NCBI RefSeq assembly: GCF_964213995.1
Contig: NC_135811.1
Coordinates: 84,258,001-84,322,000 of the forward strand
Direction: 5' to 3'
DNA length: 64,000 nt
Source of the DNA: Mustelus asterias
Lineage: Eukaryota
The translations under genes were made by a program, and so were the position numbers. The notes under the pieces were generated by a model that saw only the letters and a program-made list of their open reading frames with translations, searched no databases and had not been told where the DNA came from. This document shows, one piece after another, positions 1 through 60,420 of this stretch (the stretch's first letter is position 1; every line of letters starts with the position of its first letter).

Positions 1-1020
1 AGTCCTGCCAATTTTTTGTCGTCCTCAAACTTACTGATCACCCCAGTTACACCTTCTTCCAGATCGTTTATATAAATCACAAACAGCAGAGTCCCAATAC
101 AGAGCCCTGCGGAACACCACTAGTCACAGGCCTCCAGCCGGAAAAAGACCCTTCCACTACCACCCTCTGTCTTCTGTGACCAAGCCAGTTCTCCACCCAT
201 CTAGCCACCTCCCCCTTTATCCCATGGGATCCAACCTTTTTCACCAGCCTACCATGAGGGACTTTGTCAAACGCTTTACTAAAGTCCATATAGACGACAT
301 CCACGGCCCTTCCCTCGTCAACCATTTTGGTCACTTCTTCAAAAAACTCCACCAGGTTAGTGAGGCATGACCTCCCTCTCACAAAACCATGCTGACTATC
401 GTTAATGAGTTTATTCCTTTCTAAATGCGCATACATCCTATCTCTAAGAATCTTCTCCAACAACTTCCCCACCACGGACGTCAAGCTCACCGGCCTATAA
501 TTACCCGGGTTATCCTTCCTACCCTTCTTAAATAACGGGACCACATTAGCTATCCTCCAATCCTCTGGGACCTCACCTGCGTCCAGTGACGAGACAAAGA
601 TTTGCGTCAGAGGCCCAGCGATTTCATCTCTCGTCTCCCTGAGCAGCCTTGGATAGATTCCATCAGGCCCTGGGGATTTGTCAGTCTTTATATTCTCTAA
701 CAAACCTAACACTTCCTCACTTGTAATGGAGATTTTCTCCAACGGTTCAACACTCCCCTCCGAGACACTCCCAGTCAACACATCCCTCTCCTTTGTGAAT
801 ACCGACGCAGAGTATTCATTTAGGATCTCCCCTACTTCTTTGGGCTCCAAGCATAATTCCCCACTTTTGTCCCTGAGAGGTCCGATTTTTTCCCTGACAA
901 CCCTTTTGTTCCTAACGTCTGAATAAAATGCCTTGGGATTCTCCTTAATCCTGTCTGCCAAGGACATTTCGTGACCCGTTTTTGCCCTTCTAATTCCCCG
1001 TTTGAGTTCTTTCCTACTTT
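1..1020 (-). mobile_element. CR1-clade (HER1-like) LINE, ORF2 reverse-transcriptase fragment; continues beyond window start
   Basis: ORF 77..1030(-) has KSPGPDGIYP, DWRIANVVPLFKKG, NYRPVSLTS, QHGF, YMDFSKAFDKV and SGVPQGSVLG motifs; frameshifts near position 80. Confidence 0.95.
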
Positions 1021-1021
1021 C

Positions 1022-1868
1022 TAAAGGCAAAGTCTCTGTTCAAAAGGCGTAACAAAATTTATTTAAAAACACAGAAATCATATAGGACGAACAAAACATA
1101 AACGTACAGCCATTCGGTGGTCTCCAAAGGGTTAAACAGCTCAGGTTCAGAGATGTAAAACCCCTCCAGAGATCTGAGGCACTCAACAAAAGGTATAGTC
1201 GTTCTGTATTTTGGCTATCTAAAATACACTTCATTAGCTTAAAATCAATTTCATTTAGCGTACACATGTCAGTCCAGTTTTTGACAAAGTACCTCAGTCA
1301 ATTGCAATCTGCCATTCAGTACAATGATGTCTCATTCGTCTATTCAATCCGGACATCCTCCCATTTTGGCTAAACTCATTTTCTGGTCGCTCTGTAACTA
1401 TGGATGCTTTCCATAGATTAACTTTTCCCACAGGCACATCGCCAAGACAGAAAGATACGTGATTTCTGGGCCTTAGGAATGCATTATCTTATGCCTGGAC
1501 AATGTATGCTGCTATAATGTTCCAACATTTGTCTCAAAACCTTGAAACTTTCTAATAGTTTTGCTAACTAATGGATTCCCAGCTTATAGCTCTAACTTTC
1601 TTACCTTACCATTACACTTTACAGCATTTGCTTTTTTTGACTGAGATGAACAATACATTTTATATATTAAAATACATTCAATACTTTGATATATCCTTTA
1701 ACATCATATTCATTCATTTTAATACTGTTATTACATTCACATATTAACAAACTGTCCATATTAACTTGTTATAAGGAATCATTTAACCCCTTCTCGCTAA
1801 CTTGTTTCCCAAAAAGACTACATCTGTCTGTGAATCTCCCTAGCTGATTTGAAATTTCCTTCCACACA
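1022..1868 (-). mobile_element. Solo LTR, U5 end truncated by the adjacent CR1; same family as 31346-32559
   Basis: Reverse complement aligns by eye along its length with 31346-32490; minus strand begins TGTGGAAGG and has AATAAA near the far end. Confidence 0.7.
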
Positions 1869-3020: not shown

Positions 3021-3660
3021 AGGCGGCACAGTGGTTAGCACTGCTGCCTCACAACGCCAGGTACCCGGGTTCAATTCCCGACTTGGGTCACTGTCTGTGT
3101 GAAGTCTGCACGTTCTCCCCTTGTCTGTGTGGGTTTCCTCCGGGTGCTCCGGTTTCCTCCCACAGTCCAAAAGACGTGCTGGTTAAGCTAAATCCTCCCT
3201 CTGTGTACCCGAATAGGTGCCGGAGTGTGGCGACTAGGGGATTTTCACAGTAGCTTCATTGCAGCATTAATGTAAGAAATCATAGAAGTCATAGAAATCA
3301 TAGAAACCCTACAGTGCAGAAGGAGGCCATTCGGCCCATCGAGTCTGCACCGACCACAATCCCACCCAGGCCCTACCCCCACATATTTACCCGCTAATCC
3401 CTCTAACCTACGCATCCCAGGACTCTAAGGGGCAATTTATAACCTGGCCAATCAACCTAACCTGCACATCTTTGGACTGTGGGAGGAAACCGGAGCACCC
3501 GGAGGAAACCCACGCAGACACGAGGAGAATGTGCAAACTCCACACAGACAGTGACCCGAGCCAGGAATCGAACCCGGGACCCTGGAGCTGTGAAGCAGCA
3601 GTGCTAACCACTGTGCTACCGTGCCGCCTATTTGTGACACCAATTAATAAACTTTAACTT
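3021..3660 (+). mobile_element. HE1-like SINE (tail type B) interrupted by a second SINE at 3278-3627
   Basis: tRNA-like head GGCACAGTGGTTAGCACTG/GGTTCAATTCC; tail ...AATGTAAG|CCTATTTGTGACACC split by the insertion. Confidence 0.85.
3278..3627 (-). mobile_element. HE1 SINE (CR1/HER1-type tail), nested in another SINE
   Basis: Full head-body-tail on minus strand ending in short TTCTATGA-type repeats. Confidence 0.9.
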
Positions 3661-6600: not shown

Positions 6601-9100
6601 GCATGACAAGAAGGAGAGACTTTTGTGGTGTGGTGGGAGGGAGGCATGGTTAGGTAGGATAACATTTCTTACACCTGAAACGCAACTCGTATTGGAGTTA
6701 ACAGGTTTGCATAATTATTGGGTTGCTGCCCACAGGTTGGGTGAATCCGATTGCCTTGACGCCCATTGGGAATCTTGATTTTTGGCAGATGCCCCAGTCA
6801 GCGGGGATTCCTGCCTGCTGTCTCACGAGGCTGGAGAATCCTGTCCAGTATGTTGATAGTGGTATTGCTGGAAAAAGACTTGTTGAAGCTTTTTGACATG
6901 TCTTTTCAGCAATAAAATAATAAAAGTTATAACTTTGAGCTAGTCTGGAAGCATATCCTGAGTTGCCTATCCACAGCAACACCCACTTATTTTCCAGGAC
7001 TGGGCAGCATCAACTAAACTTTCAGGATTGTTTAGAGTTGTGGACACCCAGCCGATAAGTGAAGTTGAGTAGAGTGTGAGCGAATGTTACCTCCTGTCCC
7101 TCTTTGATTTTGGGTGTATTTCATGCTTTAATTAATGCTATTTTGCAGCAATTTCCTCAAGCCCTTGTCTTCAACTTAAAGTTTAAATTTTATTTATTAG
7201 CAACATAAGTAGGAAGACTGATGAGGTCCTGCAGCAGCAATTTAGGAAGTTAGGTAGAAAGTTAAAAAGCAGGACCTCTAGGGATGTAAACTCAGGATTA
7301 CTCCCTGTGCCATGTGTCAGTGAGGCTAGAAATAGAAGGGTAGTACAGCTCAACACGTGGCTGAATAGCTGGCGTAGGAGGGAGGGTTTCAGATATCTGG
7401 ACCGTTGGGATCTCTTCTGGGGCAGGTGGGACCTGCACAAAAAGGACAGGTTGCATCTAAACTGGAAGGGCATAAATATTCTGGCTGGGAGGTTTGCTGG
7501 TGTCACATGGGAGGATTTAAACTAATTTGGCGGGGGTGGGGGAGCGGGGGGGGGGGGGGGGGGGGTGGTGTGGTGGTGGGAACCAAAGCAAAGATGAATT
7601 AACTGAAGGGGAACCGGAGATTAGGGCCAGTAAGACTCGGAGAAAGAGCAGGCAGGGTGTGGTTGCTAATCAAAGAGGGTCTGGTGGACTGAAGTGCATT
7701 TGTTTCAATACGAGAAGTGTAACAGGTAAGGCAGATGAACTTCGAGCTTGGATTAGTACTTGGAACTGTGGTGTTGTTGCTATTAGAGACTTGGTTAAGG
7801 GAAGGACAGGAATGGCAGCTTAACGTTCCAGGATATAGATATTTCAGGTGGGATAGGGGGGGATGTAAAAGGGGTTGGGGGAGCTGCACTACTGGTTAAG
7901 GAGAATATCACAGCTGTACTGTGGGAGGACACCTCGGAGGGCTCATACAGCGAGGCAATAGAGCTCAAGAATAGCAAGGATGTAGTCACAATGTTGGGGG
8001 TTTACTATAGGCTGCCCAACAGCCAGTGGGAGACCGAGGAACAGATATGTAGGCAGATTTTGGCAAGGTGTAAAAGTAACTGGGTTGTTGTGGTGGGACT
8101 TCCCTTCAACTTCCCTTATATTGACTGGGACTCACTTAGTGCTAGGGGTGTGGATGGGGCAGAGTTTGTAAGGAGCATCCAGGAGGGCTTCTTGAAGCAG
8201 TATGTAGATAGTCCAACTAGGGAAGGGGCCATACTGGACCTGGTATTGGGGAATGAGTCCGGCCAGGTGGTCGACGTTTCAGTAGGGGAGCAGTTCGGGA
8301 ACAGTGACCACAGCTCAGTAAGCTTTAAGGTACTGATGGATAAAGATAGGTGTAGTCCTCAAGTTAAGGTGCTAAATTGGGGGAAGGTTAATTACAATAA
8401 TATTAGGCAGGAACTGAAGAATGTAGATTGGGCACAGATGTTTGAGGGCAAATCAACATCTGGCATGTGGGAGGCTTTCAAGTGCAAGTTGATAGGAATT
8501 CAGGACCGGCACATTCTTGTAAGGATGGAGGATAAGTATGGCAAGTTTTGGGAACCTTGGATAACGAGAGATATTGTAAACTTAGTCAAAGAGAAAAAGA
8601 AAGCATTTGTCAAGGCTAGGAGGCTGATAACACACGAAGCAATGTGGAATATAAGGAAAGTAGAAAAAAACTTAAGCAAGGAGTAAGGAGGGCTAAAAGG
8701 GTCATGAAAAGTCATTGGCCAGCAGGATTAAGGAAAATCCAAGACTTTTTATACATATATAAAGAGGGGGAGGGTAGTCAGGGAGAGGGAGAGGGTTGAC
8801 CCACTCAAGGACAGGGGAGGGAATCTATGCGTGGAGCCAGAGGAAATGGGCGAGATATTAAATGAGTACTTTGCGTCAGTATTCACCAAAGAGAAGGACT
8901 TGGCAGATGATGAGTCTGGGGAAGGGGGTGTAGATTGTTGAGATCAAAAAGGAGGAGGTATTGGGGTTCTTGAGAAACATTAATGTAGACAAGTCCCCAG
9001 GGCCTAATAGGATATGCCCCAGAATACTGAGAGAGGCAAGGGAGGAAATTGCTGAGGCTTTGAGAGAAATCTTTGTATCCTCACTGGCTACAGGGGAGGT

Positions 9101-10978: not shown

Positions 10979-11454
10979 GGCCGAGTGTCACAAGTAGGCT
11001 CGCATTAACACTGCAATAAAGTTACTACGAGAGTTTTTGATTTTGATTTATTATTGTCACATGTATTGTGACATGTGAGAATAATAACATTTTGTGAAAA
11101 GTATTGTTTCTTGCGCACTATACAAAGCATACCGTTCATAGTGAAGGAAAGGAGAGAGTGCAGAATATAGTGTTATAGACATAGCTAGGGTACAGAAAAA
11201 GATCAACTTAATGCGAGGTAGGGCCTACACTCCGGTGCCTGTTCGGGTACACTGAGGGAGAATCTAGCATGGCCAATGCACCTAACCAGCATCACTTTGA
11301 GTCTGTGGGAGGAAACCAGAGCACCCGGAGGAAACCCATGCAGACACGAGGAGAACGTGCAGACTCCGCACACACAGTGACCCAAGGCGGGAATTGAACC
11401 TGGGTCCCTGGTGTTGTGAGGCAGCAATGCTAACCACTGTGCCATCGTGCCGCC
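10979..11454 (-). mobile_element. HE1-like SINE (tail B) interrupted at about 11032-11222 by a short LINE 3' end (possibly Rex1/Babar-type)
   Basis: SINE head at about 11454 and tail at 10979-11030; intervening segment ends on minus strand in TGTGACAATAATAAAATCAAAAATCAAAAA. Confidence 0.7.
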
Positions 11455-12194
11455 CATACTTCAGCTGACTTACTTTAGCTTTCTTTCCGTTGTCCTCTTT
11501 TTGTCTAACTTCATATTTGCTGCAGCTCACTTCAGCTGTGACTCCCCTTTTTATTTAACTTTGCAACCCTCTACTGTGGTACTGTCTATTTTCTTTTTAA
11601 GAATCTCAGATTCTCCAGCAATATTTTCTGTTCATAGTAAATTCCAAAGGAAAATGTGAGATTTTTCTTCATGAGGAATTCACTGTAAACAGGGTATTGT
11701 ACTAAATGACAAAACGTCTTTCACAAAGGGGAAGGCAGAAAATCTGTCACAATATATTGACATCCAGTCAAAATGCACAATGCAAAATGCAACACGTAGA
11801 TGGTACGAGGCAAAGCAGTATACATAGAAAATTTAATACATACACCTGTCTGATGGTCATGTAATCTATAGATGTGTTCTGTACTTGAAGAAAAACGTCT
11901 TGCAAATTGGCACCAGGAGTATTATCGAAGGTGAATTGCACAGGAGCAATTTCTTTTGGAAATGAATCCATTTGAGTGTATCCACTACTGTCCATGTATT
12001 TGGAGTGTAATGATTCAAATAAGAATCCAGCACTTCAAATTAAACCAGGCATAACAGCATCAGTGCTTGTGTCTTTGCATATAAGTATATTTCTGTGACC
12101 ATGCAGTCTGTTATAAATGAAAGAAACCTCAGACGCTCAGGTTGCCATCAACTGTGACTGCAAGTATTGATGTCCAAATCACCCTGTCTGCATT

Positions 12195-28934: not shown

Positions 28935-29258
28935 TAGAATCATAGAATCTCTACTGTGTAGAGGAGGCCATTTGGCCTATCGAGTCTACACTGACCACAA
29001 TCATACCCAGGCCTTATTTCCATAACCCCACATATTTACCCTGCTAATCCCCTGACACTAAGGTCAATTTACAATGGTCAATCAATCTAACCTGCACATC
29101 TCTGGACTGTGGGAGGGAACCGGAGCATCCGGAGGAAACCCACGCAGACACGGGGAGAACGTGCAAACTCCACGCAGACAGTGACCCGAGGCTGGAATTG
29201 AACCCAGCTCCCTGGCGCTGTGAGGCAGCAGTGCTAACCACTGTGCCACTGTGCCGCC
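28935..29258 (-). mobile_element. HE1 SINE (CR1 tail)
   Basis: Head and tail motifs on minus strand. Confidence 0.9.
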
Positions 29259-29414
29259 ACTGGAAGCCAGCAATGACGCTGCAACTTAGCGAAATCCTCA
29301 AACATTTGCAAATGTTACTGGTTGGATCGATCGGAAAAGCATGATTTTTTTTCAATTTCTTTATAAAGCACCAGGTAACAGCATTTTCAACTCTATCTCC
29401 TATAATGCAAATAA

Positions 29415-46346: not shown

Positions 46347-46591
46347 TGATGCACTATCAATAAGGCGAAAGACTACCGATATGCCAATATAAGTGTAGGC
46401 TTTTATTCACAACAGAATCAGGAGCAGATCCCAACAATTAACCGACCTGGACTGAACAAGGGGGAGGAGACAGCCACCTTTATACTAGGTGCTGAGGGGA
46501 GGAACCAAACTGGAAGGGGATGTGTCCAGCTATGACAAACACACACAATGGTGGTCCATATAGGACAAAGGCACAACTGAGGTCCACCACA
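46347..46591 (-). repeat. 3' LTR of the intact Gypsy
   Basis: Direct repeat of 50631-50875, preceded on minus strand by PPT AAAAGGAAGGGGTGAA. Confidence 0.96.
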
Positions 46592-46640
46592 TTCACCCCT
46601 TCCTTTTAAAAAACAACACGGGGGTGAAGCGGAAACAATA

Positions 46641-49600
46641 TCACAAGTCCAGACGAACCGGTGGCTTGATCCGTCGTCGCGATCGTCGTAGTGCAGGTCG
46701 CAGAGTCGTCCGAGCAGGGAGCGATGTCGGCCCAGGCTCCGTACAGTGAGCGTCGAGAGAAGGCGCTGGGTGGTGTGAAGCGGACCGATCCGTCGTCCCG
46801 TCCAGTCGTCGGGTACTGCGTGGCGACGGCTCCGGCGACTCAAGCGAGCTGTACATAGGGGCGAGAGGAATGGGCTGTGGCCCTGGTGGCGTATGGGGAA
46901 CAGTGGGAACCGGAGCTGGGGGGTGGGGGGCTGCAACAGGCTCTGGGCACACTACATTGGGGACAGGGACTGAGGGAGGAAGAGGCGTAGCAGTCTCCGA
47001 ATGGACGACACCAGGGACCGTGGGGCGGAAGGACGTGGTGACCTCCGGGGCACCCGCGGGTGCCAAGTCACGGACAGAAACCGTGTCCTCCCGCCCATCA
47101 GGGTACGCTACATAAGCATATTGGGGATTAGCATGGAGCAGTTGGACCTCCTCGACCAAGGGATCTGCCTTATGGGTCCGGACATGCTTCCGAAGCAGGA
47201 CGGGTCCCGGGGACATCAGCCAATCCGGGAGCGAAGTACCCGAGGAGGACTTCCTGGGAAATGAAAACATCCGCTCGTGAGGGGTCGTATTGGTCGCTGT
47301 GCACAAGAGTGACCTAATGGAATGTAATGCGTCCGGAAGGACGTCTTGCCAACGGCTGACTGGAAGGCCCCTAGACCGTAACGCTAATAGAACGGCCTTC
47401 CAGACGGTTGCGTTCTCCCGCTCTACTTGACCATTGCCCCTGGGGTTATAGCTAGTGGTGCGGCTGGAGGCAACGCCTTTGGCGAGCAGGTACTGCCTCA
47501 GCTCATCACTCATGAAAGAGGACCCACGGTCGCTATGAATATAGGCTGGGAAGCCGAACAGGGTGAAGAGCTTGTTCAGGGTCCGAATCACTGTAGCCGT
47601 GGTCATGTCCGAGCAGGGGAAGGCAAAAGGGAAACGTGAGTATTCGTCAATGATATTCAGGAAATAAACATTGCGGTTAGAGGAGGGGAGGGGGCCTTTA
47701 AAATCAACGCTAAGGCGCTCGAACGCGCGAGTGGCCTTCACAAGGTGCGCCCTACCTGGCCGGTAGAACTGCGGTTTGCACTCAGCGCAGACCCTGCATT
47801 GCCTGGTAATCGTCCGGACTTCCTCAAGGGAGAAGGGCAGGTTACGGGACTTGACAAAATGGAAAAATCTGGTGACACCCGGGTGACAGAGGTCGTTATG
47901 GAGGGACTGTAGCTGGTCTAGTTGGGCACTGGCACATGATCCACGGGACAGGGCGTCTGGGGGCTCATTGAGCTTCCCAGGCCGGTACATGATGTCATAT
48001 CTGTAGGTGGAGAGCTCAATCCTCCACCGCAAGATCTTGTCATTCTTAATCTTGCCCTTTTGCCTGGTGTTAAACAGGAAGGCAACTGACCGCTGGTCCG
48101 TAATTAAGGTGAATCGTTGGCCCGCGAGATAATGGCGCCAGTGCCGGACGGCTTCCACGATGGCCTGGGCCTCCTTCTCGACCGAGGAGTGTCGAATCTC
48201 AGGGCCTTGTAAGGTCCGGGAAAAGAAGGCCACCGGACGGCCCCTCTGGTTAAGGGTGGCAGCTAGGGCAAAGTCAGACGCATCACTTTCCACTTGGAAT
48301 GGGATGGATTCGTCCACAGCGTGCATCGCGGCCTTCGCGATGTCCGCTTTGATGTCATCGAAGGCCCGACAGGCCTCCTCCGCCAGGGGAAAAGAGGTCG
48401 ATTTTAGGAGCGGACGGGCTTTATCTGCGTAACGGGGAACCCACTGGGCATAATAGGAGAAGAAGCCCAGGCATCTCCTCAGTGCTTTGAGGGTAGTAGG
48501 GAGGGGAAGCTGCATAAGGGGACGCATACGGGCTGGGTCGGGGCCAAGGACACCATTTTCTATCACGTACCCAAGGATGGCGAGGCGGCGTGTCCGGAAA
48601 ACACACTTCGCCTCATTGTATGTGAGGTTCAGGAGAGTGGCCGTACGAAGGAATTTTTGTAGGTTGGCATCATGGTCCTGCAGGTCATGGCCGCAGATGG
48701 TGACGTTATCCAGATACGGGAAAGTGGCCCGTAGTCCGTGCTGGTCCACCATTTGATCCATGGCCCGTTGGAAGACTGAGACCCCATTGGTGACACCAAA
48801 GGGGACTCGGAGGAACTGGTAGAGGCGGCCATCCGCCTCAAAGGCAGTGTATGGGCGATCCTCCGAGCGGATAGGGAGCTGGTGGTAAGCCGATTTCAAA
48901 TCGATCGTTGAAAAAACCCTATAGTGCGCGATGTGGTTGACTATGTCCGCGATACGGGGAAGAGGATATGCATCTAGTTGGGTATACCTGTTTATGGTCT
49001 GGCTGTAGTCAATCACCATGCGGTGTTTCTCCCCCGATTTAACTACGACCACTTGCGCCCTCCAGGGGCTGGTGCTGGCCTGGATAATCCCTTCCTGGAG
49101 CAAACGTTGTACCTCGGACCGAATGAAGGCCCGGTCATCCGCACTATAGCGCCTACTCTTGGTGGCTATAGGCCTACAATCCGGGGTGAGGTTATCAAAT
49201 AACGGGGGGGGGGTGATCTTGAGGGTCGAGAGACTGCAGGTGGTGCGCGAGGGGCGCTGCCGTGACGGCGCCTTGCAGACGGAGAGCGGGGGATAAGGGC
49301 CATCATACTGCAGGGTGACGCTCCTATGATGGCTGAGGAAATCTAACCCCAGCAGTACAGCTGCGCAGAGTCGCGGCAGCACGAGGAGCCGAAAACGCTC
49401 GTAGACTGTGCCCTGTACCGTCAGCGTCACCAAGCAGCACCCGAGGACCTCCACTGAGTGAGAATTCGAGGCCATGGAGATGGTCTGGCTCCAGGGTTGC
49501 ACGGGAAGGGCATATTGACGCACTGTGCGAGGGTGTATAAAACTTTCCGTGCTCCCACAGTCAAACAGGCAGTTTTCTGCATAACCATTTACCTTGATCT

Positions 49601-50606
49601 CCATTATGGACTTGGAGAGTTGATGTGGCTGCGACTGGTCCAGGCAAATCGATGCCACTGTTGAGTTAAAGAAGAATCCATCTTCGTCGCCGTCTGATGA
49701 CGTCACGGATGAAGCTTCCTGCTCAGCTTGCCTTGATGCCAGTCTCAAAGATGGCGACTCCCGCACTTCCGGTGACCGCATCAAAGATGGCGATTCCCGC
49801 ACTTCCGGTGACCGCATCCAAGATGGCGATTCGCGCGCAGCCGCCGCCTGCATCAAAGATGGCCGCGCCCTCGGAGCACACATGGCTCCACGAGTCTTCA
49901 GAAGCGGCTTTGCTCTGCAGACTTTGACAAAGTGGCCTAGCTTACCGCATCCGGAGCAAATCGCGTCCTTTGCCGGGCAGTGACGCCGAGGGTGCTTAGG
50001 GAGGCCACAAAAGTAACATTTGGGCCCTGCTGGAGCAGCCGTCGCAGTGGAGCCGTCGGTGGAACGGGATCCAAGGTAAGACCCGAGATTATGGGAGGCT
50101 GCTTCTAACGTTTCAGCCATCGTGGCCGTTTTCCGGAGGTCTTGGTCATCTTGTTCCAGCAGACGCTGCTGGATGTATGTAGACTCAATGCCCGCAACGT
50201 AGGCGTCGCGGATCAGATCCTCCGTGTTCTGAGCTGCTGAAACAGCCTTACAGTCGCATGCTCGGGCGAGGACTCGCAGGGCGCGCAGAAATTGGGCGCA
50301 CGATTCTCCTGGCTGCTGTTTGCGGGTAGTTAGGAGGTGTCTGGCGTAAACCACGTTAGGGCTCTTTCGGAACTGCCCTTTTAGGAGTTCGATAGCGTCC
50401 GCGTAAGTAGCAGCGTCCCGGAAGATTCCATAGACAGTTTCGCTTACCCGGGCGCGGAGCACGTGGAGTTTAGCAGCGTCGGTGTCGATGGCCGTAGCGG
50501 TGTCGACGAATGCTTCGAAGCAGTCCAACCAATGATCAAATTTATCAGAGGCTCCAACCTCTTGAGGGTCTAAAGCTAACTTGTCGGGTTTTAGAAACTG
50601 CTCCAT
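46641..50606 (-). CDS. Gag-Pol polyprotein, 1321 aa (Gag with two CCHC knuckles, protease, RT, RNase H, integrase)
   Basis: CYFCGLPKHPRRHC and CSGCGKLGHFVKVC; LFDCGS; IDLKSAYHQL, PFGV, YLDN; SDAS, EKEA, ITDQ, DALSR; HHCC; SVDF, SDRG, QVER; Pro-rich tail ending LRRSRRRIKPPVRLDL. Confidence 0.96.
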   Translation of the reverse strand: MEQFLKPDKLALDPQEVGASDKFDHWLDCFEAFVDTATAIDTDAAKLHVLRARVSETVYGIFRDAATYADAIELLKGQFRKSPNVVYARHLLTTRKQQPGESCAQFLRALRVLARACDCKAVSAAQNTEDLIRDAYVAGIESTYIQQRLLEQDDQDLRKTATMAETLEAASHNLGSYLGSRSTDGSTATAAPAGPKCYFCGLPKHPRRHCPAKDAICSGCGKLGHFVKVCRAKPLLKTRGAMCAPRARPSLMQAAAARESPSWMRSPEVRESPSLMRSPEVRESPSLRLASRQAEQEASSVTSSDGDEDGFFFNSTVASICLDQSQPHQLSKSIMEIKVNGYAENCLFDCGSTESFIHPRTVRQYALPVQPWSQTISMASNSHSVEVLGCCLVTLTVQGTVYERFRLLVLPRLCAAVLLGLDFLSHHRSVTLQYDGPYPPLSVCKAPSRQRPSRTTCSLSTLKITPPPLFDNLTPDCRPIATKSRRYSADDRAFIRSEVQRLLQEGIIQASTSPWRAQVVVVKSGEKHRMVIDYSQTINRYTQLDAYPLPRIADIVNHIAHYRVFSTIDLKSAYHQLPIRSEDRPYTAFEADGRLYQFLRVPFGVTNGVSVFQRAMDQMVDQHGLRATFPYLDNVTICGHDLQDHDANLQKFLRTATLLNLTYNEAKCVFRTRRLAILGYVIENGVLGPDPARMRPLMQLPLPTTLKALRRCLGFFSYYAQWVPRYADKARPLLKSTSFPLAEEACRAFDDIKADIAKAAMHAVDESIPFQVESDASDFALAATLNQRGRPVAFFSRTLQGPEIRHSSVEKEAQAIVEAVRHWRHYLAGQRFTLITDQRSVAFLFNTRQKGKIKNDKILRWRIELSTYRYDIMYRPGKLNEPPDALSRGSCASAQLDQLQSLHNDLCHPGVTRFFHFVKSRNLPFSLEEVRTITRQCRVCAECKPQFYRPGRAHLVKATRAFERLSVDFKGPLPSSNRNVYFLNIIDEYSRFPFAFPCSDMTTATVIRTLNKLFTLFGFPAYIHSDRGSSFMSDELRQYLLAKGVASSRTTSYNPRGNGQVERENATVWKAVLLALRSRGLPVSRWQDVLPDALHSIRSLLCTATNTTPHERMFSFPRKSSSGTSLPDWLMSPGPVLLRKHVRTHKADPLVEEVQLLHANPQYAYVAYPDGREDTVSVRDLAPAGAPEVTTSFRPTVPGVVHSETATPLPPSVPVPNVVCPEPVAAPHPPAPVPTVPHTPPGPQPIPLAPMYSSLESPEPSPRSTRRLDGTTDRSASHHPAPSLDAHCTEPGPTSLPARTTLRPALRRSRRRIKPPVRLDL
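49745..49870. repeat. In-frame 36-bp tandem repeat (about 3.5 units) in the Gag-protease linker
   Basis: Units start at 49745, 49781, 49817 and 49853; encodes ESPS(L/W)MRSPEVR. Confidence 0.9.
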
Positions 50607-50630
50607 ACTAGTAACTGTTGTGAATAAAAT

Positions 50631-50875
50631 TGATGCACTATCAATAAGGCGAAAGACTACCGATATGCCAATATAAGTGTAGGCTTTTATTCACAACAGA
50701 ATCAGGAGCAGATCCCAACAATTAACCGACCTGGACTGAACAAGGGGGAGGAGACAGCCACCTTTATACTAGGTGCTGAGGGGAGGAACCAAACTGGAAG
50801 GGGATGTGTCCAGCTATGACAAACACACACAATGGTGGTCCATATAGGACAAAGGCACAACTGAGGTCCACCACA
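50631..50875 (-). repeat. 5' LTR of the intact Gypsy
   Basis: Direct repeat of 46347-46591. Confidence 0.96.
50734..50768 (-). promoter_or_regulatory. LTR core promoter: TATAAA plus Inr-like TCAGTC (predicted +1 at 50737)
   Basis: TATAAA at 50768-50763 with the Inr A 31 nt downstream; second element has the same pair at 32 nt (55926, 55894). Confidence 0.7.
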
Positions 50876-52954: not shown

Positions 52955-53404
52955 CAGAACTTTTCAGCTGCACTACTGCACACTAATTGATATTGGACAT
53001 AAATGGCATCCAAGAGAGATCCTATGTGTTGTGTGATAATGTTAAAAATTGATGCGTGTTATCATACACGAGGCTAGATGCTCAGGAAATAAAGGCTTTT
53101 ATTTGCTGTAACGAAGCAGCCAACAATTATATACACGATCCCAGACTGAGGGGTCCCAGCCAGAGCAGGGACCTTTATACCTCTCCCAGGAGGCGGAGCC
53201 CGACTGGGATGTACCACAACACTACAATACAAAGGTGTAACAACCCCACCCTAACCCAACAGCAACATATGTACATCCTTGTAGTACTGGCCAGACCCTG
53301 GCTCAGTACTATCCAGTGGGAACCAACGATGGTTCACCACATTCACCCCTCCTTTGAGAACAAAGGCCGGCGGGGTACAAAAAACAGAATAAAATGTCAT
53401 CAGT

Positions 53405-54824
53405 CTATAAGTTCAGACGGTCAGGGGGACCGCACCGTCGTTGTGACCTCCTCAATACCGGCGGTGACACCGGAGTAGGCACTCGCGGTGGCGTTCTCCC
53501 CGAGGCGACATCCAGCTGTTCTTCCACGGACTCACAGGCCGGTTGACCCTGAGGTGACGGTAGTCCATGGAGTCCCGACACGCCCTGAAGTGGCGACCAT
53601 CCTCTGGACTCAGGCAAGCTGTACACGGGAGTAAAAGGGTTAAGTAATGGTCCCGATGCTGCCCGCGCCGTGTCCGGGGGAGAAACAAGAGTTAAGGGGT
53701 TTGTAACAGGGGGTATGGGAGCGACAGGGGTTGCTACGTCCCCTGCTGGCGCCAGGTCTCGGATCGAGACCGTGTCCTCTCGCCCGTCAGGGTATGCCAC
53801 ATAGGCATACTGAGGGTTGGCGTGGAGGAGATGGACCTGTTCGACCAACGGGTCGGACTTGCGGGCCCTTACATGTCGCCGCAGGAGGACGGGTCCTGAG
53901 TACGTCAACCAAGACGGTAATGAGGTCCCCGAGGAAGACTTCCGAGGGAATGAAAACATCCTCTCATGGGGAGTAGCATTGGTTGCCGTACACAGGAGTG
54001 AGCGAATAGAATGGAGCGCATCAGGGAGCACCTCTTGCCAACGGGAGACTGGAAGGCTTTTTGACTTCAACGCCAGTAAGACAGCCTACCAGACTGTAGC
54101 ATTCTCACGTTCCACCTGTCCGTTACCCCTAGGGTTGTAGCTCGTGGTCCTACTAGAGGCAATCCCGTATGAGAGCAGGAATTGCCTCAAGTAATCGCTC
54201 ATGAACGACGAGCCCCTGTCGCTGTGAATGTAGCCGGGGTACCCGAACAGGGTAAAGAGATCACGGAATGCCTTGATAACCGTGGCAGCGGATGTATCAG
54301 AGCAGGGAACAACAAAAGGGAACCTAGAGTACTCGTCAATGATATTGAGGAAGTACACATTCCGATCTGTTGAGGGAAGGGGGCCCTTAAAATCGACACT
54401 CAGTCTCTCGAAGGGACAAGTGGCCTTGACTAAATGTGCCCGGTCAGGTCGGTAAAAGTGCGGTTTGCATTCCGCGCAAACCCGACAGCTTCTTGTTACG
54501 GACCTGACGTCCTCCACCGAGTAGGGCTGCGGGCTTTTATAAAGTGGTAGAGCCGAGTGACCCCAGGATGGCATAGGTCATTATGGAGAGCCTGCAAACG
54601 GTCCTCCTGTATACTGGCGCATGTTCCACGCGAGAGGGCATCCGAGGGCTCATTGAGTTTCCCTGGACGGTACATGATGTCGTAGTTATAGGTGGAGAGT
54701 TCAATTCTCCACCGCAAGATCTTGTCATTCTTGATCTTGCCCCTCTGCGTGTTATTAAACATGAACGCCACGGACTGCTGGTCCGTGATCAGGGTGAACC
54801 GTTTTCCCGCCAAGTAATGGCGCC
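53405..54824 (-). pseudogene. RNase H C-terminus plus integrase, disabled
   Basis: WRHYLAGKRFTLITDQ...HHCC...SVDFKG...SDRG...QVER; frameshift near 54528 and TAG at 54086-54088. Confidence 0.9.
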
Positions 54825-55747
54825 AAACTCAGCGACCCCTGGTGGTCACACACCTCCGACTCCGTCGACCGTAATGGCGTCGTCCTGGCCTCGCACGTGG
54901 ACGAACCCCTCGATGATTTCGACGACGAAGAGCCGGGCTCTGAAGAATCGCAGGTCGCACTGCCGTTCCTAGATTTAGATCGGCACACTTTCGAATAGTG
55001 CCCCTTCTTACTGCAGGCAGAGCACAACACAGCCTTAGCGGGACACCGTTGCCGAGTATGCTTCGCTCCCCCACAGAAGTAACACCGCGGGCCGCCCGGA
55101 GCTGCTGCCGTCGTCTGGCCCGAGTGTGAGCACGCCATTATGCAGCATTTCGAACCCGAGGGACGAGGAGGGATTGGCGACTGCTTCTGCCACGTTGTCT
55201 CCACGTGGTCTTCAGGATACAATACTAGGCTTTTGGAGGCCGTCTCCAGCATCTCCGCTCGCTCGATTGCCTGGGTAAGGTCAAGGTTACCTTTCTCCAG
55301 TAGTTTAAGTCGAATGTACGACGATCCGACTCCCGCCACAAACGCATCTCGGGCGAGGTCGTTCATACTCTGCTCAGCCGACACAGCTTTGCAGTTACAG
55401 CCCCTGGCTAGCTGTAGGAGCTCGTTCGCATATTCCTCCATCGTTTCGCCAGACTGCCGTCGTCGAGTGGCTAAGAGGTAACGAGCGTGTATTTCATTGG
55501 GCGGTTTGATATAACGCTTCTTCAGAAGCTCGAGGGCCTTTGTGTAATCGGTGGCCGCACGGATCGCGAGGTAGACAGTGTCTCTTACCCTCGCATGGAG
55601 GACCCGGAGTCTGTCATCATCTGTGGTGACCGCTGCGGAGGCTGCCAGGTAGTTTTCGAAACACTTCAGCCAGTGGTCGAAGCTGTTAGAGGCGCCCGCC
55701 GCACGTGGATCTAGTGTAAGGCGTTCCGGCTTCAGGATCTGCTCCAT
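54825..55747 (-). pseudogene. gag of the deleted Gypsy, open up to the deletion junction
   Basis: MEQILKPERLTLDP...CYFCGGAKHTRQRC...CSACSKKGHYSKVC; true start at 55747 by homology with MEQFLKPDKL. Confidence 0.88.
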
Positions 55748-58659
55748 ACTCTCTTTTTTTGTTCTTCGATGAGAGTTTAACAACAGCAAATAAAATTGAC
55801 GCGCATTATCATACACGAGGCTAGATGCTCAGGAAATAAAGGCTTTTATTTGCTGTAACGAAGCAGCCAACAATTATATACACGATCCCAGACTGAGGGG
55901 TCCCAGCCAGAGCAGGGACCTTTATACCTCTCCCAGGAGGCGGAGCCCAACTGGGATGTACCACAACACTACAATACAAAGGTGTAACAACCCCACCCTA
56001 ACCCCAACAGCAACAAGTAGCACAACCCAACAGTAACATATGTACATCCTTGTAGTACTGGCCAGACCCTGGCTCAGTACTATCCAGTGGGAACCAACGA
56101 TGGTTCACCACAAAAATAAGGGACAATTCTGTAAAATTCAAGACTGTTGATCACCCTGTTTCCAGCACTGACCCAAATCTAAAATTGCCAAGGAACCCAT
56201 GTTATATGCCACAGCAATGATAAGGTTACACTAAGCAACCTTGCAGCAGTGCTAGATACAAGCCAGCAGTATACACCGGTCAGATTCATTTAAGGACTGT
56301 CTTGATCCCTGTGGGGATCTGTAAATCAAAAGAACCAAATTTCAGAGTGATTCCCCAAATGAAAATATTACACAATAAGATTTCACTTTTTGTAACATTT
56401 ACTTTAACACAGATCAGAATCAATGTAAATTACACCTGAATTAACAGATAAATCACAGTTGGCACAAACAATAAATTGCACATAGAATTGCAGATACAGT
56501 AAATATTAGTTCATTGTATTAGTAGTAAATTCACTGCGCCTGTCCCAGTTTTAGCCAGTCCTTCCAAGCACAATTCCAGTCCCTTTCCTTCAAGGCCTTA
56601 GCCAATTCTCAATTGGCAGCAATGCTCTGCCTGCACAGTCTTCTCTATATAATACATTTCTTTCTGGAATGTTCTCAACTCTGTTTCTGTTGGTTGTGTA
56701 GCATGAGTCTACTGGAACCCCAATCTCCAGCTCTCCCCTTTCCTCTATATATCCCCCGCGTTTTAAGTTTCTCCTTGGTCAAGGGTCGCCACTTCACATG
56801 GACTGGTATTTGTTAATTTCCAAACATTATAATAGATCACATTGCAAGTGATACAAACTCTCAAAAGTCCTTCTCAAACATTTTAAAATAAATTACAGAT
56901 TCCCCAAATCTATTAAAGTAACTAAAAAATTTCCTATTGTTATGGCTGTCAAATGTTATGAAGTTGCATGTGTAAGGTTAAAAATGTGGTGTTTGACAAA
57001 TATAAATATTGAAAAGAAATGCTGAAACCAAAAGAAGAAATCATATAGCACCGTCTCTTTAAAAAACGTGTATCTTTCTGTAGGTTTTAACCTGCAATAG
57101 CAGGTTTGCAACATTCGTATCCAAAGTAGCAGTCAGGGTTCCAACATAGCAAAACAGGCTTTTGAATTGAACCAATGAGTTTATAGCAAGCACGCAGACA
57201 CAGGACCAATGGAATTCAAATGTGAGATTTGCTGACAGCCTCAAGCCACTCAGATCACAGGAATACTGTGAGGTAATTCCAGGTACATAAACCCAGGCAG
57301 GAGGGGTAACTGTTAGAGTAAGCTTGCCACCTCTTTAGTTGGAAGAAGGGGTGGCGAGGCTCTCATATAGAATCCTGCAGTAATATATATATCTTCAGAA
57401 AATCACCATCTAAATTGTAGTATTCCAGATGAGAGCATCACAGAAGAATGTTCATACATCCAAAATACGCCTGGTTGTATATTCTTTGAGAGTGATTGTA
57501 TTCTATAAGGATTTATTTCATTATTCCTGAATGAGTCTTGTAATATTTGGACTGCATTCTATTGGGATTTTATTTAGTTTGTTAATTCTTTAATAAGGTT
57601 GTCACCAGTTTAAAAAATAAAGACCTGTTAATTGTTCATTTTAGAGAGTGGCAGATCCTGCTTTAATTTATCAAAAGCAGTAGCTTCCTACGACACCACA
57701 CACATTCGTATAAGATTATGAAGCGAGGTATAATACATTACCTCCGCATCATAACACAGGTCAATGGTTATCACTGGCAGAGATGTCAGTGCTCAATGGA
57801 AAATCCTATTATCATTGATAAAATGTATGAAAACAGTAGACCTTTAAAATTCTCACACATCAAGCTGCCTTGAAAAGTACTTTTAACAATATCTTCGAGA
57901 TTGTTGCAATAATTCACAAATCCTCAATGGTTCCAGACAAATCTCAAATCTAATGCGATTTTTACTGTATCTTGTGTTTGTTAGTAACATTAAATCTGAG
58001 AATACTAGTAGCTCAGTGCTTCCATTGTCTTGGTTGGCCACCATCTGAATATAGTCATTTATCTCTTTTTAAATTACCCATAGAGAGCGTGTAATTTTTG
58101 CACTTTGAGATTATGTACATTCTACTGTTGATAGCCTGAGTCGTTTGTTGGGTGTTGTGTGTCAACCTCCGTAATTGTAATTTAATAAGCTTTCCAAATA
58201 GAAACGCTTTGAAAATTGGTTGAGGATGAATTAGAGGGTGGTGGTGTTGTTCTGAAGAGAATAGGATGGTGCACTGATAATCAAACTGGCTAATGGAAAT
58301 CAGTGAATTTTATCATGAGGCTTTTCGAAGAGTGTTTTCAACAACCTATTTCTTCCTGCACTTAGTAAAACAAAGATGAATAACCATAATTATTCTGCAC
58401 ATTAACGGCTTGTCGCAACAGATAGTCATCTGCGGCTATAGTTCTGGTATTATTAAAAGTAATGATAAACTATTGCTGTGTAGAAAGTTCCTTTCTATTC
58501 TCAGACATGTACACAGATGAATCCATAATTAAGTTCGATTTCCTCTCCTTTGTGTGCAAGGAATATATAATTCTTTGGCAAGAAAAAGGAGAAAAGGAAT
58601 CATGAACTGTTACAATGCCTAGGGATTTACTGAGAGACCGAAGTTTTGCTTCATACTTT

Positions 58660-60091: not shown

Positions 60092-60420
60092 GGGTGGCAC
60101 GGTGGCACAGTGGTTCGCACTGCTGCCCTCACAGCACCAGGGACCTGGGTTCAATTCCGGCCTCGGGTCACTGTCTGTGTGGAGTTTGCACATTCTCCCT
60201 ATGCCTGCGTGGGTTTCCTCTGGGTGCTCCGGTTTCCTTCCACACTCCAAAGGTGTGTGGGTTAGGTGGATTGGCCATGCTAAATTGCCTCTTAGTGTCA
60301 GGGGGATTAGCAGGGTAAATACATGGGGTTAAAGGGATAGGGCCTGGGTGGGATTGTTGTTGATGCAGCCTCGATGGGCTGAATGACCTCCTTCTGCACT
60401 GGAAGGTTTCTATGATTCTA
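60092..60420 (+). mobile_element. HE1 SINE (CR1 tail)
   Basis: Full head-body-tail. Confidence 0.9.

Follow-up and report, generated by a model that had tools for sequence, protein, structure and literature searches.

Self-priming of reverse transcription is on record for the Tf1/sushi chromoviruses, and two plant lineages are predicted to use it. According to the accessible portions of the reports on Tf1 and Tf2 of S. pombe, Tj1 of S. japonicus and the Tf1/sushi chromoviruses, these elements carry no tRNA site, the primer-binding site (PBS) directly behind the 5′ long terminal repeat (LTR) complements the element's own LTR, the reverse transcriptase (RT) is said to cut the primer free, and a copy of the primer persists in the cDNA (PMC4600332, PMC5341516, PMC11042837, bioRxiv 10.1101/2022.12.06.519325). 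For plant Tcn1 (Ty3/gypsy) and TAR (Ty1/copia), self-priming was predicted from at least 10 bp of complementarity between the 5′ LTR and a site 0 to 5 bp behind it, and the accessible part of that report gives no evidence on cut sites or by-products (PMC6317226). Ty3 and Ty1 are tRNA-primed; as far as the source consulted in part describes them, displaced primer-tailed plus strands pile up as dead ends, and the primer sequence is never inherited (PMC5371799).

The window analyzed here comprises 64,000 nt of the 3.68-Gb genome of Mustelus asterias, and the closest named homologues of its LTR retrotransposon protein come from sharks and rays. Two related elements lie on its minus strand, each with a PBS complementary to an arm within its own 5′ LTR:

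53050..56112, minus strand: element 2, an internally deleted Ty3/gypsy LTR retrotransposon with the 5-bp target duplication ATTTT
55797..56112, minus strand: 5′ LTR of element 2, 316 bp, TG...CA
55921..55926, minus strand: TATA box TATAAA, predicted promoter (sequence motif)
55891..55896, minus strand: Inr-like TCAGTC; transcription is predicted to start at its A (55894), with the 13-nt arm following 38 nt downstream
55858..55864, minus strand: GCTTCGT, 5′ strand of a second helix and predicted partner of the gag start AUGGAGC, overlapping duplex position 15
55844..55856, minus strand: arm ACAGCAAATAAAA, complementary to the PBS and predicted to act as self-primer; the poly(A) hexamer forms its end, and the RNA is predicted to be cut at this 3′ edge or 1 base short of it
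55797..55843, minus strand: rest of R plus U5 (the loop), 47 nt plus the 1-nt spacer; predicted template of minus strong-stop DNA
55783..55795, minus strand: PBS TTTTATTTGCTGT, 1 nt after the LTR
55741..55747, minus strand: gag start ATGGAGC, 3′ strand of the second helix, pairing with 55858..55864
53344..53355, minus strand: polypurine tract (PPT), 2 nt (AA) before the 3′ LTR
53050..53341, minus strand: 3′ LTR of element 2, 292 bp
46347..50875, minus strand: element 1, a young Ty3/gypsy element with 100% identical 245-bp LTRs and the target duplication CAGGA
50685..50699, minus strand: arm of element 1, CTGTTGTGAATAAAA, 15 nt, complementary to the element 1 PBS
50615..50629, minus strand: PBS of element 1, TTTTATTCACAACAG, complementary to the element 1 arm

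The TG...CA LTRs, the PPT and the target duplications identify Ty3/gypsy LTR retrotransposons. Element 1 retains the order protease-RT-RNase H-integrase within one frame of 1349 codons, preceded by a Gag with two zinc knuckles, and has neither a chromodomain nor env. Element 2 lacks the middle of this arrangement: its deletion corresponds to residues 262-850 of the element 1 protein (the end of Gag, protease, RT and most of RNase H), and its integrase part is interrupted by one frame change and one stop. The target duplication of element 2 (53045-53049 and 56113-56117) also equals the first five bases after its 5′ LTR, a match that may reflect chance or an insertion guided by microhomology. 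Elsewhere in the window, RT and endonuclease Pfam matches at 77-1039 (minus strand) and 7799-8686 (plus strand) are probably LINE remnants, and a short dispersed repeat with many copies 60-90% alike (e.g., 3022-3629, 11227-11455, 29031-29259 and 60102-60416) is probably a SINE.

On the minus strand, TTTTATTTGCTGT at 55795-55783 starts one base beyond the LTR end ...GCGTCA and perfectly complements ACAGCAAATAAAA at 55856-55844, with 48 nt between them. The 13-bp stem, 48-nt loop and 1-nt spacer reported by the sequence-only reading are thus real, and the comparison with shuffled LTRs that it proposed bears this out: 13 bp was attained in none of 5000 dinucleotide shuffles of the element 2 LTR (maximum, 9), nor were the 15 bp of element 1 attained in 5000 shuffles of its LTR (maximum, 10). 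Outside the AATAAAA core, the composition-based chance of the pairing is approximately 8e-5 for element 2 and 4e-5 for element 1. The 3′ LTR of element 2 carries the same arm at 53097-53109, with no PBS after it. Because TGG is absent, the PBS of element 2 does not correspond to a tRNA 3′ end. An Rfam search of 55600-56200 returned three matches, all far under the gathering score, which we took as chance. In both LTRs of the element 2 family (family 2), the bases directly behind the hexamer (GCCTTTATTT, window 55837-55854) can pair with the hexamer as a local hairpin, possibly a rival fold to the arm:PBS duplex; family 1, that of element 1, does not have it.

The second family had been called independent, with LTRs largely unalignable to those of the first. 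The alignment is indeed poor (global score of 62, against 27 ± 9 and a maximum of 60 in 200 shuffles), but both LTRs have in common the TGTGGTG start, TATAAAGG, TCAGTC, AATAAAAGCCT and the TCA end. Independence did not hold: the Gag N-termini are 52% identical, and the two elements are therefore relatives rather than separate origins.

Across the genome, a pattern running from the hexamer to the LTR end, the spacer A and TTTTATT gave 11,471 matches, compared with 126 for the control. We fetched 100 regions, 95 around pattern matches on contig 1 and 5 chosen deliberately from protein searches because they were mismatched, and obtained 103 junctions. The search pattern fixes the A/T core, and only duplex positions 8 onward count as a test. 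At positions 8-13, 596 of 618 pairs were Watson-Crick, 8 were G-U and 14 were mismatched, whereas sliding the arm against the PBS by 1 to 3 nt left only 134-275 of 618 Watson-Crick. The arms comprised 33 different 8-mers, with all four bases seen at positions 8 and 9. Pairing extended to position 14 in 86 and to position 15 in 87 of the 103 junctions and then ended sharply, position 16 being paired in 7. The perfect run measured 15 bp in 64 junctions and 13 bp in 13, so that element 2 represents a short variant; the second helix, which overlaps duplex position 15, would explain its 13-bp stem. On a gag tree of 99 copies (4 copies without a gag start were left out), the paired columns underwent 46 joint changes, compared with a mean of 8.6 and a maximum of 15 for 265 wrong column pairings. 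The covariation first noticed between two elements consequently extends to many more families, and complementarity reaches well beyond the A/T-rich core. The small TGAT...RTCA hairpin said to close U5 did not generalize, occurring in only 52 of 103 junctions.

Sets selected by protein are free of the pattern bias. In such a set, 29 of 30 family 1 loci matched the junction pattern, and in family 2 one position read C-G in 9 of 30 loci, T-A in 19 and was discordant in 2. Distant relatives came from 80 metagenome loci, of which 43 had a Gag start and 38 of these enough upstream DNA, many of them redundant. With Gag only 32-50% identical, 34 of the 38 had a stem of 10-18 bp, while control windows in pol reached at most 8 (36 computed). 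These relatives keep the pairing up to an AAA-GCCT or AAA-CCT edge, as well as the CA and approximately one base before the PBS. Their distinct arms number about 21 by eye, and roughly 20 different arms (by eye) exclude one single host RNA as the primer. A three-duplex 'pretzel' structure characterizes the Tf1/sushi group; when 21 leaders were folded here as single sequences, the inner helices varied and the arm:PBS stem was kept in 20.

The duplex might serve only to mask the poly(A) signal of the 5′ LTR, the sole place where it forms, with priming left to another primer and the covariation due to selection on RNA structure. In its favor, every shark copy examined has AATAAA at the end of the arm, about 12 of the 21 distinct distant arms (by eye) close with AATAAA or ATTAAA, and the hexamer would lie inside the transcribed leader. 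About 9 of the 21, however, lack a canonical hexamer, one arm pairs through GAAGA/TCTTC, and in L092 the duplex leaves out an AATAAA that lies elsewhere. A fixed distance of 1 nt from the LTR end is not required for masking, which also tolerates G-U pairs and does not predict the by-products described below, whose joints lie at the PBS and the arm's edge. No other primer site is visible. We regard masking alone as very improbable; the function of the duplex is most likely priming and not chiefly poly(A) masking, and hiding the 5′ poly(A) signal is likely at most a side benefit in sharks.

The covariation had been read as evidence that the structure is selected. That the duplex is functional stands, but selection on RNA structure is unsupported as it was stated. 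Among 22 multicopy haplotypes, none of 132 pairs was G-U or mismatched. In 88 elements with two LTRs, arm and PBS differed at 16-17 of 528 sites at positions 8-13, compared with 13 of 528 between the two LTR arms; 15 elements were left out of this comparison (10 in which no 3′ LTR was found, 4 with more than 3 differences in the compared stretch and 1 rearranged). Since arm and PBS have diverged about as much as the LTRs have from each other, they matched at insertion. The second helix behaves differently. The 7-mer just 5′ of the arm pairs 7/7 with the gag start in 78 of 99 copies, compared with 12 of 1386 control windows, although one control offset was also high (59% with 6 or more pairs) and one side of the helix is constrained by coding; its 661 pairs include 85 G-U (13%), and 19 copies have one compensated change. 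This helix, made in RNA only, wobbles and the PBS does not, which makes it an internal control.

Retroviral PBSs are also rewritten from the primer. We suggest that in the shark elements, too, the PBS is probably often rewritten from the primer during reverse transcription; such copying fits the covariation as well as selection on RNA structure does, probably better, and under it compensatory changes would need no intermediate. Selection acting strictly in each cycle is another possible cause. The accessible part of a report on Tf1 states that the DNA copy of the primer is retained in about half of the cDNA molecules (PMC11042837), and a Tf1-like retained copy would allow the rewriting; the absence of inheritance in Ty1 and Ty3 counts against it (PMC5371799, as seen in part). 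At positions 14-15, several subfamilies, that of element 2 included, have inherited mismatches (26-28 of 176 sites, compared with 2 between LTRs), and copying would thus be incomplete at the outer end of the duplex. Copies with a PBS extended by the next arm base and still leading to gag gave 3 matches, belonging to another family. At one locus, L284 (G000:C1:4795685-4801401), the duplex measures 19 bp, compared with 15 in its siblings, as though four extra primer bases had been copied.

Where transcription would start was predicted from promoter motifs; four contig sets compared with element 1 in search of RNA evidence yielded neither a start nor an end. TATAAARG occurs in 65 of the 103 junction sets, an Inr-like motif follows 31-34 nt behind it in 62 of the 65, and in these 62 the 15-nt arm begins 36-40 nt after the Inr-like motif. 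Under plain Tf1-type priming, transcription would instead start at the arm, and the primer would be the first 13-17 nt of the RNA. By the conserved TATA-Inr spacing, the start is placed 36-40 nt before the arm, the 7-mer lying 5′ of it still pairs with the AUG through wobble and one compensated change, and duplex position 15 is a pyrimidine in 103 of 103 junctions. A pyrimidine is an unusual Pol II start. Promoter spacing and second helix together would speak against a primer formed by the 5′ end of the RNA, as far as motifs and predicted pairing can tell. On the other side, most distant relatives have no obvious TATA box (10 LTRs read), a pattern search for a tail that ends at the predicted start and leads into gag gave 0 matches, and the strand of one by-product (L319) stops 15-16 nt into the arm. 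Tf2 has alternative start sites, according to the accessible part of the source (PMC5341516). The sharp limit at 15 bp keeps plain Tf1-type priming alive, and a primer of about 52 nt alone does not account for it; we nevertheless consider this explanation unlikely.

Integrated by-products supplied further evidence for self-priming. The first case was one of 30 pattern loci; it had a 5-bp duplication, and the LTR was followed by the A and by an inverted arm that ran back as far as the first U3 base. A pattern for such palindromic junctions gave 110 matches, compared with 0 for the control, and 139 without the TATA term. Of 30 fetched, 25 were LTR-A-inverted arm/U3 palindromes with the loop intact, and where both ends were found, the 5-bp duplication was perfect in 22 of 24 and had one mismatch in 1. 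Among 20 further loci, both ends were called in 13, 7 of them with a perfect duplication. Family 1 has 14 aberrant compared with 847 normal junctions; the 14 comprise 6 full palindromes with perfect duplications, 4 of the fold-back class described next and 4 without one recognizable end. Palindromes joined at this position show that the site behind the LTR works as a PBS.

In the fold-back class (30 matches at 29 loci; control, 0), 19 loci have an insertion that opens with the whole loop in reverse complement, changes direction at the arm's edge, and then runs back to the LTR end and on through the A, the inverted arm and inverted U3. Target duplications were perfect in 13 of the 19 and had one mismatch in 3, with 3 left without a call. 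For the 18 loci with a clean interval (L364, in which a mismatch blurs it, was left out), turn-point offsets of 0 and +1 each fit 17. Among the remaining ten loci, 4 run 7-12 nt into the arm (by eye), as expected after strand transfer, 2 turn early, 2 represent a duplicated locus of another make and 2 are chance matches. These joints suggest that the end of minus strong-stop DNA marks the cut by which the primer was released from the RNA, and by analogy the stop within about a base of the AATAAAA edge points to a Tf1-like cut. With a cut one base inside the edge, the terminal CA would be followed by AT, a counterpart to the AA that separates PPT and U3. The fold-back point coincides with the inner stem of the loop, and homology rather than the template end may favor the turn; other 4-7-nt fold-back chances occur along the strand.

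The same by-products bear on which arm serves as the primer. The 3′ LTR arm is identical in sequence and polarity, and an RNA 3′ end trimmed to AATAAAA could pair with the PBS and circularize the genome. Every palindrome runs on from the arm to the first base of U3, and discordant LTR pairs are balanced (approximately 7 each) and thus silent on which arm the PBS follows. A free 5′ arm, however, would let strong-stop DNA extend to the cap, and the 19 fold-back products stop at the arm's edge; no product was found at the predicted start in a limited search, strands turning near it giving 2 matches and the control 1 among the families with AGTCTGG that were covered. The U3 ends can be explained by fold-back of displaced plus strong-stop DNA with re-use of the PPT, as described for Ty3 in the part of the source consulted (PMC5371799). 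Priming from the 3′ arm therefore appears highly unlikely, and self-priming by the 5′ arm would account for both classes. For the palindromes, a plus strong-stop strand ending in the primer copy would fold onto its own arm and be extended, after which Ty3-like re-use of the PPT would unfold it into DNA with two U3 ends. By analogy, displaced plus strands of the Ty3/Ty1 kind are the likely source; a tRNA-tailed strand of those elements cannot fold on its own LTR.

Assembly chimeras can also generate inverted repeats, and the core of the duplex is A/T-rich. The palindromes have 5-bp target duplications, contain 0-7 mismatches between their arms and come from several families, and for the duplex, chance is refuted by the shuffles, the covariation, the distant relatives and the slid-register control. 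We give chance complementarity or an artefact virtually no credence.

Rarer insertions were also seen. Three loci (L173, L180 and L193) consist of U3 to the arm followed by part of the inverted loop and then jump to gag, integrase or foreign sequence; in two of them the strand folds back to a U5 end and a 5-bp duplication is present, and L180 captured about 150 nt of foreign sequence. In two palindromes, L318 and L319, synthesis had continued beyond the PBS as far as the gag ATG before the strand changed template to the LTR at the second helix, which is therefore also a template-switch point. The RT active site reads YLDN instead of YxDD (P0001 residues near 663-666, window 46641-50690; loci L218-L317), in 85 of 85 motifs found in the 100 fetched regions, and YxDN occurs in 80 of 121 proteins. 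The Ty3 RT is the best solved-structure match (E value of 3e-50), and the accessible part of one report describes a Ty3 with a like change as keeping activity at lower processivity (PMC5371799). By analogy, a YLDN-type RT might promote fold-back products.

Collectively, the sequences themselves show the duplex, its covariation, the sharp outer limit at 15 bp, the absent tRNA site and by-product joints that fall exactly at the PBS and the arm's edge. We consider it likely that the element primes itself with a piece of its own 5′ leader, the arm acting as primer once the RNA is cut at the arm's 3′ edge. Transcription would start approximately 37 nt upstream of the arm, making the primer internal, unlike the first RNA bases used by Tf1, and the leader would fold into the arm:PBS duplex and the second helix, in which the gag AUG is held. 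The RNA would be cut 0-1 base before AATAAAA ends, by analogy with Tf1 through the RNase H of RT, and the 3′ OH would thereby be freed. Minus strong-stop DNA would then comprise only the 47-55-nt loop and jump to the 15-20 nt that separate hexamer and poly(A) site at the RNA 3′ end. Plus-strand synthesis would copy the primer, so that the PBS would often be rewritten from the arm. A fold-back of either the copied tail or the strong-stop DNA, in 1-2% of events, would yield short palindromic DNA with two usable ends that could then be integrated.

The shark elements resemble the Tf1/sushi group in the absence of a tRNA site and in a PBS directly behind the 5′ LTR that complements their own LTR, and their complementarity lies within the length and spacing used for Tcn1 and TAR. 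The latter belong to plant chromovirus or copia lineages. From Tf1/sushi, the shark elements differ in having no chromodomain, a primer predicted to be internal (36-40 nt behind the start), a duplex of 13-18 bp, an arm ending in the poly(A) hexamer, a second helix with the gag AUG, integrated fold-back by-products and the YLDN motif. No Chromo match was found in P0001 or 4 homologues (one of which ends before integrase), nor in precomputed lists for 120 homologues, and for this reason we did not file the elements in the Tf1/sushi group, though they appear to work like Tf1. The short LTRs are shared with the animal nonchromoviral clades Mag and CsRN1. A Gag with two zinc knuckles presumably recalls Mag-type elements, and both CsRn1 and Mag use tRNA priming. 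The 5′ end TGTGGTG fits the CsRN1 motif TGTGGYG listed in Table 3 of a partly accessible source, a likeness of motif only (PMC3601003). In the accessible portions of the literature searched, we found no account of the PBS of this clade, of YLDN retrotransposons or of such by-products, and nothing bearing on the subject in those of PMC12471100 and PMC6934838; Butler 2001, Goodwin and Poulter, GyDB, Repbase and supplements lay outside this scope and may describe the clade. The integrated by-products with 5-bp target duplications are what is new here.

The junctions mark a whole nonchromovirus Ty3/gypsy clade. A joint reading, which we offer tentatively and hold slightly less probable than its negation, is that self-priming arose separately in this pan-animal clade, the poly(A) signal being where an internal primer is cut out; one 15-bp duplex would prime, hide the 5′ poly(A) signal and be rewritten from the LTR in each cycle, and the miscopied insertions would form a fossil record mapping the cut to one base. 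Through the by-products, reverse-transcription intermediates can be read in an assembly. These insertions also give rise to short perfect palindromes whose two LTR promoters read outward. The case is a warning, too, that a perfect compensatory change at a PBS may arise from copying and not from selection on RNA structure. With more than 11,000 junctions in a single vertebrate genome, a large self-priming animal clade outside the Tf1/sushi and plant lineages would mean that tRNA-free priming is common and probably of convergent origin, and it bears on whether hairpin priming preceded tRNA priming.
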